Source of the DNA: Escherichia coli O157:H7
GTDB taxonomy: Bacteria > Pseudomonadota > Gammaproteobacteria > Enterobacterales > Enterobacteriaceae
DNA length: 64,000 nt
Assembly: GCF_013167455.1 (NCBI RefSeq)
Contig: NZ_CP038328.1
Strand: one strand, 5' to 3'
In this document: in pieces, positions 50,301 through 53,300 of the stretch
Numbering within the stretch: the first letter of the stretch is position 1
How the letters are laid out: each line of letters starts with the position of its first letter
Program-made: the position numbers

Positions 50301-53300
50301 TTGATAAAAAAGCAGGCGGAAAATTAATTGTCTCAACGAATGCGCTGGAAGTGAGTGGTACAAACAGTAAAGGCCAATTTAGTATAAAAGATGGTGTGTC
50401 AAAAAATTATGAACTGGATGATGGTTCCGGGCTTATTGTTATGGAGGACACGCAGGCCATTGACACTATCCTCGATGAGCATGCCACTATGCAATCGCTG
50501 GGAAAGGATACTGGTACGAGAGTGCAGGCAAATGCGGTATATGATCTCGGTCGATCAGATCAGAATGGAAGTATAACGTATTCCTCTAAAGCCATCTCTG
50601 AAAATATGGTTATCAACAATGGCCGCGCTAACGTCTGGGCTGGCACAATGGTTAACGTGTCAGTCAGAGGAAATGATGGCATTCTTGAGGTTATGAAGCC
50701 GCAAATAAATTATGCACCCGCAATGTTGGTGGGTAAGGTAGTGGTTTCTGAGGGCGCTTCTTTAAGAACGCATGGTGCCGTGGATACCAGCAAAGCGGAT
50801 GTTTCGCTCGAAAATAGCGCATGGACCATCATTGCCGATATCACTACGACGAACCAAAACACCCGCCTTAACTTAGCCAACCTTGCGATGTCTGGCGCAA
50901 ATGTGATTATGATGGATGAGTCAGTGACTCGTTCATCTGTGACGGCAAGTGCGGAAAATTTCACTACGTTGACCACCAATACCCTGTCGGGAAACGGCAA
51001 TTTTTATATGCGTACCGATATGGCGAATCATCAGAGCGATCAGCTCAACGTCACCGGTCAGGCAACAGGTGATTTCAAAATATTCGTGACGGACACCGGT
51101 GCCAGCCCGGCAGCAGGAGATAGCCTTACACTGGTAACAACGGGCGGCGGTGATGCTGCATTTACGTTGGGCAATGCCGGAGGCGTTGTTGATATCGGTA
51201 CGTATGAATATACCTTGCTGGATAATGGTAACCATAGCTGGAGTCTGGCAGAGAATCGCGCGCAAATTACCCCTTCAACCACTGATGTGCTGAATATGGC
51301 GGCCGCACAACCGCTGGTATTTGATGCAGAACTGGACACCGTGCGTGAGCGTCTTGGTAGCGTAAAAGGCGTTAGTTACGATACGGCGATGTGGAGTTCG
51401 GCAATTAACACCCGCAACAACGTGACCACTGATGCGGGAGCTGGTTTTGAGCAAACATTGACGGGCCTGACGCTCGGTATCGATAGCCGTTTCTCCCGTG
51501 AAGAAAGCAGCACAATTCGCGGCTTGTTCTTTGGTTACTCTCATTCTGATATTGGTTTTGATCGCGGCGGCAAAGGCAATGTCGATAGCTATACCCTGGG
51601 GGCTTATGCCGGTTGGGAGCATCAGAACGGTGCCTATGTTGATGGAGTGGTGAAAGTTGACCGTTTTGCCAACACCATCCATGGCAAGATGAGTAATGGG
51701 GCAACAGCGTTTGGCGATTACAATAGTAACGGCGCGGGTGCTCATGTCGAGAGCGGGTTCCGTTGGGTTGACGGATTGTGGAGTGTTAGACCCTATCTGG
51801 CCTTTACCGGCTTTACCACAGATGGTCAGGACTACACGTTATCAAACGGCATGCGCGCGGATGTGGGAAATACCCGGATATTACGCGCTGAAGCGGGAAC
51901 GGCGGTAAGCTATCACATGGACCTGCAAAACGGTACGACGCTGGAACCCTGGCTGAAAGCCGCCGTGCGTCAGGAATACGCCGATTCTAACCAGGTGAAA
52001 GTTAATGACGATGGCAAATTTAATAATGATGTGGCTGGAACCCGTGGCGTTTATCAGGCTGGGATAAGGTCATCGTTTACCCCGACGTTAAGCGGTCATT
52101 TGTCAGTCAGCTATGGCAATGGCGCAGGGGTAGAATCGCCGTGGAATACCCAGGCGGGTGTGGTCTGGACGTTCTGATAACAGACAATAAACAGGCCCTG
52201 ATGTGTCGCGGTCTGTTTATCGAATTAAATGCAGATATAAAAAAACCAACCTTTACGGTTGGTTTTTTTGGGATTTTTGGTCGGCACGAGAGTAGTTTAA
52301 TTGAGTATGTAACTACATGATTTTAAATAATATGCTTGATTCAACTTTTAAACCGTATAACTAAACGTATAACTAAAATCATTTGCTGAAAAAGTGTACA
52401 ATTTAAATGCGAGTTTTCCTGTGGTAAAAGCTCCAACCGTAACGATGTTCGTTATGGTTGCCTTGATGGTCTGCGTGGTCATTATGACCATTCAGGATTT
52501 GAAGGGTGACGCTTCCGACTTCCTCAAATTGAGGTTTCCGAAAATATCAGCGGGTTAGGCCAGAGTGCAAATTTGCACTCTGGAACAATTCCAACCAGTA
52601 ATCAGCGCAATTTTGCGCTTTGCTTTAAGTTCAGCGAGTAACCGAAGGCGGAATTACGCCCTCGGTACTCACATATGAGAAACGATATTTCTTCCACCGA
52701 TACCCTTTATTTGGGTATCGCGAGTAAGCCCCAAAATCTGGGTGTTACTCTTACTACCCAAACTACGGGTATTTTCCGTAATTTCATGGTCGAGTTGCAG
52801 ATCTGCAACTCACCCACCAGCCAACGCAATTTTGCGCTTTGCTTTAAGTTCAACCAGTTACCGCCGTAACCGCTCCGGCTTCTTCCAGTGGTACGTAATT
52901 TTTGCTTTTTCCCTGTACGTCTGCACGCGGCGACGGTAGGCCAGCATTTCAAGAACGCGGATCCGTATGTTGCGCATATCAACGCCATTAAGTTCTATAC
53001 CATCACGGCGCATCACCTCAGCAACCACACGCGCGTAATTTTCGGCGGTCACGCTGTACGGCTGCGCGGTTTTTTCGTCAGCCTGCTGGCTGATTCCGGC
53101 GACGCGGCGGATTAATCCCAGTATTTCGGCTTCTGTCATTTCTCCACCTGGTCAGCTATTAAACTGCGAAAATTTCGTAATTATCCCGATACGGGGATCA
53201 CCATATCGGGATTGATGCCGGAAAAATCAGCTTTCGCCAGAACGGTGACGGCCTTATCGAGTTTTTGCCATCCGCAATAGGTGATTGCCCTGAACGCTGT

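Follow-up and report, generated by a model that had tools for sequence, protein, structure and literature searches.

The island and its non-coding tail

The stretch analysed here, referred to as the window, is 64,000 nucleotides (nt) of the Escherichia coli O157:H7 chromosome (NZ_CP038328.1) and runs from nap-ccm-narP-yejO through yejM. Between yejO and tRNA-Pro(GGG) it contains an island of ~9.6 kb (~52276-61928), integrated in the tRNA-Pro gene proL, whose genes (int, alpA, a C4 RNA, a P4-type primase, a TerS-like gene and a capsid-like gene) all lie on the - strand. The layout is that of a Gram-negative phage-inducible chromosomal island (PICI), as is the length (such islands measure about 9-15 kb): int and alpA stand at one end and are co-directional with the rest, and the island has its own primase and attachment-site (att) repeats. 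We studied the 565 bp (52293-52857) that separate the distal att repeat from the last island gene, which encodes a protein of 93 amino acids (aa), and refer to them as the tail. An earlier note on this DNA had taken the segment for the structured, non-coding end of a phage satellite, a description that our analysis bears out. We put at about even the chance that it is a non-coding PICI tail in which an att arm is followed by a family-private stack of modules, acting as architecture and not as a gene.

The repeats that had drawn attention to the tail are present. The distal att repeat, TTTGGTCGGCACGAGAG, lies at 52276-52292 and equals 61850-61866. Palindrome 1 proves to extend over 24 bp without a mismatch (52560-52583, CCAGAGTGCAAATTTGCACTCTGG), the 22 bp claimed before lying within it, and palindrome 2 is likewise perfect over 20 bp (52792-52811); no other perfect palindrome in the window is as long as either. 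When the region was shuffled 2000 times with dinucleotide counts preserved, the longest palindrome per shuffle had a mean of 9.3 bp and a maximum of 18 bp, always short of 20 bp. A third perfect palindrome, the 15-bp TGGTCATTATGACCA (52476-52490), absent from the earlier note, lies within a 37-codon open reading frame (ORF). The 28-bp direct repeat is exact (52606-52633 and 52825-52852) and belongs to a longer repeat of 53 nt (52592-52644 and 52811-52863; 83% identity). The second of these longer copies extends across the stop codon of the 93-aa gene. Folding of 52505-52870 is far better than that of shuffles on both strands (z = -8.0 and -10.6). Palindromes lead one to expect this, and folding does not identify the strand; folding energies, strong on both, were accordingly dropped as a guide to it.

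Organization of the repeat modules

The two palindromes and the 28-bp repeat are pieces of modules that fill the tail from ~52420 to 52863. Their design comprises a palindrome of variable sequence (13-24 bp), an A-rich spacer of ~12 bp and a conserved box that matches the consensus of integration host factor (IHF). With all copies aligned on the best-conserved motif, the consensus unit is a palindrome, a spacer that is typically TTTCCGAAAATA, and the box TATCAAC(C/G)(A/G)GTTA(C/G)(C/G). Among 60 distinct units in related tails, almost all palindromes end 10-12 nt from the box. The tail and its borders hold the following features (related loci are given as L numbers throughout).

52276-52292, no strand: att core repeat TTTGGTCGGCACGAGAG, 17 bp, identical to 61850-61866, the 3' end of tRNA-Pro(GGG)
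52293-52410, no strand: integrase-distal attachment-site arm (P-arm-like), with two CGTATAACT repeats (52354-52362 and 52366-52374)
52420-52495, + strand: module M1, with palindrome TGGTCATTATGACCA (52476-52490) and a decayed box-like sequence at its 5' end
52445-52558, + strand: 37-codon mini-ORF, judged non-coding, whose stop codon TAG is part of an IHF-like box
52515-52559, + strand: unit a, with palindrome CCTCAAATTGAGG (52522-52534), a 10-nt A-rich spacer and box TATCAGCGGGTTAGG (52545-52559)
52560-52603, + strand: palindrome-1 unit, with palindrome 1 (52560-52583) and decayed box TCCAACCAGTAATC (52590-52603)
52604-52643, + strand: unit b, copy 1, with palindrome AGCGCAATTTTGCGCT (52604-52619), spacer and decayed box GTTCAGCGAGTAACC (52629-52643); contains the first copy of the 28-bp repeat
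52636-52670, no strand: long imperfect hairpin GAGTAACCGAAGGCGGAATTACGCCCTCGGTACTC, predicted on both strands and conserved in L001, L003 and L013
52694-52815, no strand: module M4, with hairpins at 52699-52719, 52722-52750 and 52755-52771, and palindrome 2 (52792-52811) with a central GATC
52824-52862, + strand: unit b, copy 2, with palindrome ACGCAATTTTGCGCT (52824-52838), spacer and box GTTCAACCAGTTACC (52848-52862); contains the second copy of the 28-bp repeat
52858-53139, - strand: last gene of the island, encoding the 93-aa protein (phrog_1561), on which the tail is anchored

Unit a is the commonest unit class in relatives, and a single change, G for A at position 6, separates its box from the strict IHF consensus WATCAANNNNTTR. 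The core of palindrome 1, GTGCAAATTTGCAC, is kept in L001, L004 and L040 while the outer positions vary, and in relatives an intact box then follows this palindrome. Copy 1 of unit b is terminator-like on the + strand. In copy 2 the box GTTCAACCAGTTACC overlaps the stop codon of the 93-aa gene (52858-52860). A box occupies this stop-codon position in most relatives, 18-21 nt in from the end of the tail as extracted (with a few bases of the 93-aa gene included), and is a strict match to the IHF consensus in 21 of 39 non-redundant tails. M4 is 88-99% identical in 21 related loci and always adjoins the tail of the 93-aa gene; a covariation test of M4 was given up, as it holds too few substitutions. 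A Chi site, GCTGGTGG (- strand, 52814-52821), which may be there by chance, lies between palindrome 2 and the last unit; it also occurs in L001 and L081, but not in most relatives.

The stack is strongly mosaic. Relatives have the same modules in other orders and copy numbers, and among 5426 complete E. coli genomes 1464 contain pieces of the region, whereas only 3 contain 80% or more of it. M1, for example, keeps 95-97% identity in islands integrated elsewhere (the O157 island beside phoQ, for one), and is joined to different neighbours in other relatives. In L060, L064, L077 and L024 an extra module, absent from the window, stands next to M1; it consists of four GTGAC repeats (CGTGACGGAGAGTGACAACCAGTGACACACCGTGAC) at ~10-11 bp spacing with a palindrome, TGACGTTGGCCACGTCA, and from its sequence looks like another protein-binding array.

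The units have no copies elsewhere in the window or in the CFT073, L003 and L004 loci. A search for the strict unit pattern in one genome per species, made for its taxonomic breadth, gave nine single matches in unrelated taxa that appear to be due to chance. We also considered the palindromes as operators shared with the int/alpA region, and discarded the idea after finding no other copies in the window, L086, L001, L003 or L002. Nor are the internal units recognizable as fossil 3' ends of the 93-aa gene (local alignment score 17, versus 16.8±2.5 in shuffles).

IHF-like boxes and covariation of the palindromes

In the 39 non-redundant tails the strict consensus WATCAANNNNTTR has 44 matches on one strand and 1 on the other, with 0.4 expected, and the matches are preceded by CGAAAATA. 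At the level of the family, thus, IHF consensus sites stand beside palindromic units in an extragenic 3' region; the boxes of the window tail are at least one mismatch off, the best being TATCAGCGGGTTA (A6G), accompanied by weaker copies. As a sanity check, the relaxed pattern WATCARNNNNTWR also matches the ompC-micF control region (27490-27502), a known IHF target. The sequence found there, AATCAATAACTTA (- strand), is identical to the box inside the phage gene roi and is followed by TATTTGACAGCACTGAATGTCAAAAC; it does not belong to a prophage roi.

The palindromes differ completely between unit classes, yet each is self-complementary (CCTCAAATTGAGG, AGCGCAATTTTGCGCT, AGTGCAATTTTGCACT, AGCTCAATTTTGAGCT, TCCCCCAATGGGGGA, TTCGCCGCTGGCGAA, CAGCCGTTGGCTG, GCTCAGAATTGAGC). 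In 18 sequence-distinct palindromes, Watson-Crick pairing was found at 78% of arm positions, versus 40±6% with shuffled partners (at most 60% over 2000 shuffles). Palindrome arms measured at the fixed position had a mean length of 4.05 bp, versus 2.46±0.21 bp in shuffles. Compensatory changes are seen directly in the series AGCGCAA/TTGCGCT, AGCTCAA/TTGAGCT and AGTGCAA/TTGCACT, and between CCTCAAATTGAGG (the roi form) and CCTGCATTGTAGG (L004).

The attachment-site arm

The motif CGTATAACT has exactly six exact copies in the window, two in the distal arm and four at 61668-61717, between int and the tRNA; a stretch of 26 nt recurs unchanged in both arms (52353-52378 and 61696-61721). Islands at the same site (L041, L057, L081) share the sequence from 52151 to ~52407 and then diverge, similarity ending at ~52403-52407, and the segment from 52293 to ~52410 is common only to same-site (proL) islands. 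Since arm-type repeats occur in both arms and the segment travels with the site, we assign 52293 to ~52410 to the integrase-distal att arm, which carries two of the six predicted integrase arm-type repeats of the island. It behaves in this like the P and P' arms of lambda, with their Int arm-type, IHF and Xis sites, its repeats being common only to the int-proximal arm; the latter has a strict IHF-consensus match at 61786-61798. The unit array, in contrast, is unlike a lambda-type attP arm: it lies 130-570 bp from the core, recurs in islands whose integrases and sites differ, and goes with the 93-aa gene, not with int.

In the 12-kb circular satellite L004, the attP region (9265-9535) has a repeated motif, GTGTACATA, on both sides of a terminator-like hairpin, presumably the arm-type sites of L004 itself. 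The window sequence GTGTACAAT (52394-52402) resembles this motif.

Relationship to EcCICFT073

The island is a member of the EcCICFT073 family of Gram-negative PICIs, with its packaging module swapped. EcCICFT073 (Fillol-Salom et al. 2018, PMC6092414, and 2019, PMC6739421; L086, NC_004431) likewise has int, alpA, an Icd-like/C4 region, primase, capsid/packaging genes, the 93-aa gene and a ~550-bp non-coding tail that reaches to att. The 93-aa last gene, DUF4222, the Icd-like region, the primase and the capsid-type genes stand in the same order as in the window island, and the tail modules of the two are 83% identical. Three perfect palindrome-plus-box units are present in the EcCICFT073 tail (boxes at L086 13987-14153; complement of NC_004431 ~1388650-1388820), and this genetically tractable island has lambda and phi80 as helpers. 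The islands differ in site, EcCICFT073 being next to phoQ and the window island in proL, and in packaging genes: the window island has a TerS-like gene (phrog_641) and a short capsid-like gene where EcCICFT073 has rppA and the lambda-type sites cos1 and cos2 (cos, cohesive-end site). In EcCICFT073 the 93-aa gene comes after a 144-aa gene, which is rppA as judged from its size, its position and the RppA N-terminus given in the supplement of PMC6739421. The remaining features of the window island are as follows.

53181-54158, - strand: 325-aa HK97-capsid-like protein
54312-54938, - strand: TerS-like protein, phrog_641 (as listed, starting with GTG at 54938)
55945-57777, - strand: P4-type primase
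58621-58806, - strand: C4 antisense RNA (Rfam RF01695, 77.6 bits) and isrK-like RNA (66 bits)
59689-59895, - strand: AlpA-like regulator
60392-61651, - strand: integrase
61852-61928, - strand: tRNA-Pro(GGG), the flank on the int side

The 93-aa gene that anchors the tail is last in islands at several sites, including UTME-3 (proL), O157:H7 (next to phoQ) and CFT073 (next to phoQ). Its product has 259 relatives on proviral contigs of IMG/VR, the best 80 of which are 84-96% identical. It has no homologue among 50,697 phage records and is satellite-specific. It matches no Pfam domain and has no PDB relative, and its single-sequence AlphaFold model is a three-helix structure of low confidence (pLDDT, the model's own confidence score, 67). 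A role as a recognizable DNA binder was rejected on these grounds, there being no Pfam domain and the model being too weak. Given 84-96% conservation of this protein among the loci kept, beside palindromes that bear no resemblance to one another, it is unlikely to recognize the palindromes by their sequence. Rpp homologues were sought among the TerS-like proteins encoded in the window and in L002, the L003 protein with DUF1441, another hypothetical protein of L002 and the 93-aa protein itself; none has a PDB relative by phmmer, and at that level none is an Rpp homologue.

Relatives of the island can exist in the excised state. The circular NZ_CP148328.1 (10,790 bp), deposited as a 'plasmid', is such an excised relative. 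It and NZ_CP148430.1 (12,152 bp) appear in PLSDB as circular 'non-mobilizable plasmids' with integrase, primase and capsid genes, and both are presumably excised islands that were assembled as plasmids.

The tail is not described in the accessible parts of PMC6092414, PMC6739421 or the Feiss review, and our literature search found no paper tying PICIs to these repeats. The Pas small RNA (sRNA) preprint makes no mention of roi, PICI, satellite, isrK, antirepressor or phoQ. The repeat design of the tail appears to be undescribed.

Probable location of the packaging site

A cos or pac (packaging) site had been proposed for the tail, and the evidence speaks against it. The lambda-type cosN, GGGCGGCGACCT, with a neighbouring cosQ was not found in 52000-61900 at up to 2 mismatches, the nearest being a chance-level 2-mismatch match inside int; the same search recovers cos1 and cos2 in EcCICFT073. 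The 19-nt cohesive end of P2/P4, GGCGAGGCGGGGAAAGCAC, has no match in the island at up to 3 mismatches. In EcCICFT073 two cos sites have been defined experimentally (PMC6092414, PMC6739421). On L086, cos1 (15232-15246) lies upstream of rppA, and cos2 (14496-14510) separates rppA from the 93-aa gene; neither site falls in the tail, as each is on the upstream side of the 93-aa gene. We scanned 58 loci (56 related ones plus EcCICFT073 and the window): a lambda-type cosN is present in 35, in every case upstream of the 93-aa gene and in none in the tail. M4 was also tried as the packaging site of islands that lack cos, and rejected, as its presence is independent of a lambda-type cos (2x2 table: 12, 9, 23, 14). 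The contig ends of L013 are uninformative on virion ends, since this IMG/VR contig is an integrated copy next to mdtJI.

A candidate lies elsewhere in the island.

54870-54925, - strand: candidate cos/pac core upstream of terS, seven G residues followed by TCGATCGCCCTGGACACCGCCCCCCGTCTCA

This segment is nearly identical to a block ~250 bp upstream of terS in Pankowvirus and Stx1a/Stx2c (Shiga toxin) phages (78 records). In the satellite the cos-like block is followed by two repeats of its own, AAGTTACAC (54823-54843); the phages have GTTAAC repeats instead. The window TerS is 37% identical to that of the same phages. The terS start is probably the ATG at 54800, not the listed GTG at 54938; the PHROG match of the ORF begins at residue 47. 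The apparent 'N-terminal extension' is the conserved non-coding cos-like block, which explains why it aligns to phage DNA in tblastn. From these sequence features, 54823-54925, upstream of terS, is the candidate region in which a cos or pac site would be expected. The block mirrors the published picture of a shared cutting site combined with private recognition repeats, and its sharing points to Pankowvirus and Stx1a/Stx2c phages as helpers.

Similarity to roi

Unit a is related to a piece of the roi/ant genes found in 38 lambdoid and Stx phages (33 of 36 nt identical); beyond this 36-bp piece of roi the tail has no similarity to phage genomes. The shared stretch encodes Roi residues 42-56, in a frame different from that of the mini-ORF. 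A unit of L004 shares 50 of 60 nt with roi, and where it differs the symmetry of the palindrome is retained (A-T to C-G; C-G to G-T). The homology does not extend beyond the unit, and a tblastn search with Roi gave no further match in the window, so that a decayed full-length roi pseudogene was discarded as its source. In phage HK022, Roi reportedly binds a site inside its own gene beside an IHF site, and IHF is reported to stabilize this binding (Clerget and Boccard, 1996). The unit at 52515-52559 is homologous at the DNA level to a stretch of roi in HK022-type lambdoid phages, a stretch that may or may not be the bound one, and the homology includes the palindrome and the IHF-consensus box 12 nt apart. 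The sequence is coding in the phage, whereas in the island, which has no roi gene, it is non-coding and multiplied.

Interpretation of the tail

In the reading that we favour, the founding module starts on the stop codon of the 93-aa gene with its box, ~12-bp A-rich spacer and 13-24-bp palindrome. Further modules in the same orientation, partly decayed here, are stacked behind it and have been reshuffled between relatives by recombination. The analysis shows this anatomy, its distribution in the family, the bias in orientation, the covariation of the palindromes, the match to the consensus and the placement of cos elsewhere. We infer that IHF would bind such units and that the tail could act on mRNA, recombination or insulation: as an IHF-bendable, hairpin- or cruciform-prone spacer it would separate the late operon from attP, int and flanking transcription, and its 3' untranslated region hairpins would close that operon. 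The nearest known design is that of BIME-1/RIP elements (bacterial interspersed mosaic elements of the order REP-IHF-REP, where REP is repetitive extragenic palindrome; RIP, repetitive IHF-binding palindromic element). They too combine palindromic units with an IHF consensus site, lie at operon 3' ends and vary in copy number. Unlike them, the tail has palindromes of varying sequence, units in tandem direct orientation, confinement to one satellite family and no REP similarity.

Several points weigh against this reading. The REP consensus GCCKGATGCGRCG has 35 REP-like matches in the window and none in 52293-52857, so that the BIME analogy is one of design only. The tail hairpins lack U-runs in the sense direction and hence are not classical terminators of the late operon. 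The WATCAANNNNTTR matches are copies of one homologous motif, not independent events. The boxes of this island include no strict match and only one with a single mismatch, so the internal units may be decaying and functionless. Symmetry of the palindromes can be maintained without selection by a mutational process, template-switch correction of quasi-palindromes. Finally, stem mismatches (12 G-T versus 4 A-C, many of them not independent) were tried as an indicator of the RNA strand and left it undecided.

Three explanations that would give the tail a conventional content fare worse. That it is the cos or pac site of the satellite, with the repeats as TerS-binding sites, is very improbable. 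Repeated short sites combined with IHF-like boxes do recall lambda cosB (R3-I1-R2-R1, that is, R sites and the IHF site I1; PMC9026076), and the island has a TerS-like gene of its own; unlike cosB, the tail adjoins neither cosN nor cosQ. The absence of lambda and P2 cos from the island, the position of cos in relatives, the phage-like block upstream of terS here and the lack of phage similarity except to roi all disfavour it, and the tail occurs as much in islands that have rpp and a lambda-type cos as in those that have terS or lack both sets. We read the tail neither as a packaging site nor as a toxin gene. The 37-codon ORF (52445-52558) proposed as a type I toxin-like membrane peptide exists with the translation given, begins with ATG, has a hydrophobic N-terminal half and is intact in the window, L001 and L002. 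It lacks a Shine-Dalgarno sequence, however, and differs from its closest relative, L001, by 7 non-synonymous and 2 synonymous changes, with no purifying selection. In L061/L074 it is interrupted by an in-frame stop, its hydrophobic N-terminus is absent from EcCICFT073 and L081, and in many relatives its halves (M1 and M2) are split by other modules. Searches of NCBIfam and PHROG gave no family for it. The C-terminal half of the ORF is homologous to a piece of roi that is read in another frame, and its stop codon falls in a conserved box. We judge it non-coding from these sequence comparisons, and a toxin-like or other membrane mini-protein extremely improbable. A small RNA, also among the first proposals, keeps a small probability; a + strand sRNA or antisense RNA, running from M1-M2 to the hairpin at 52604-52619 or from M4 to that at 52755-52771 and having as its target of regulation the convergent late operon or a helper gene (roi, for instance), is quite unlikely. 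Both hairpins are terminator-like with T-rich tails on the + strand, predicted structure is strong, and M1-M2 and M4 are highly conserved between islands. Of the extended -10 element described earlier, the TACAAT hexamer is present (52397-52402, within GTGTACAAT), but the TG is one base off register. A consensus promoter scan of 52100-53300 found no promoter, and the hexamer lies in the site-specific arm that is missing from islands sharing M1-M2. No Rfam 15 covariance model matches 52293-52857 at E <= 1, the same search recovering C4, isrK and tRNA from other parts of the island. Many relatives have M1 and M2 apart, and the other strand folds equally or more strongly.

The two remaining explanations take the modules themselves as their starting point. 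It is conceivable, though unlikely, that the units are co-binding sites for IHF and a helper protein of the Roi/Ant type, copied from the site in roi, which would titrate or sense that protein. The matches of unit a and of the L004 unit to roi suggest this, as do the restriction of the homology to a piece the size of a binding site, without a decayed roi gene, and the reported Roi/IHF site of HK022. Against it, most unit classes have quite different palindromes, which one protein could not read, the window has no roi gene, and lambda, a working helper of EcCICFT073, is not known to carry roi. In a broader form, which we consider quite improbable, the units would be multiplied and diversified Roi/IHF co-binding sites, by which the replicating satellite would titrate or sense helper proteins of the Roi/Ant/KilA type; if true, this would add a layer of DNA decoys to satellite-helper conflict, besides Rpp-type protein interference. 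The main rival, possible if on the improbable side, is neutral debris: a selectively free gap filled by fragments, short-homology duplications and self-correcting palindromes, with only the att arm functional. It could account for everything beyond the first unit, or even for all of the tail. The extreme mosaicism, the differing module orders and copy numbers and the decayed boxes of this island fit it, as does the transfer of EcCICFT073 by lambda, a helper not known to carry roi; published work, moreover, places all packaging and interference functions elsewhere. Debris does not account readily for the gradient of conservation seen in about ten or more unit classes, which falls from the box through the spacer to the palindrome sequence. 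The fixed distance between palindrome and box, the 44 to 1 orientation bias, the unit on the stop codon in most relatives and the conservation of M4 in 21 loci likewise argue against it.

If the tail is debris, the finding is an ordinary one. If its units bind IHF or a helper protein, they would form an unstudied cis-acting layer in PICI excision, expression or interference, in an element whose pieces are found in more than a quarter of complete E. coli genomes, O157:H7 and EcCICFT073 included. For annotation, the mini-ORF should not be called a gene, and the attachment site takes in the ~120 bp with which the tail begins. The packaging site is to be sought upstream of terS, in the block held in common with Stx1a/Stx2c phages, which are candidate helpers.

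Other features of the island and window

The capsid-like protein (53181-54158, - strand) matches only the C-terminal part of HK97-type major head proteins. In UTME-3 and NZ_CP148328.1 the same position is taken by a ClpP-protease/major-capsid fusion of ~630 aa, and the 325-aa gene may be a truncated or remodelled capsid gene. The C4 antisense RNA is an immunity RNA of the P4/P1 style, here within an island of PICI build, and a weak match resembling an a1/b1 target stands beside the C4 and isrK RNAs (stretch 58621-58819, - strand). In the core-genome part of the window, canonical REP/BIME clusters occur at 379-552, 7318-7399, 23499-23625 and 35406-35505.

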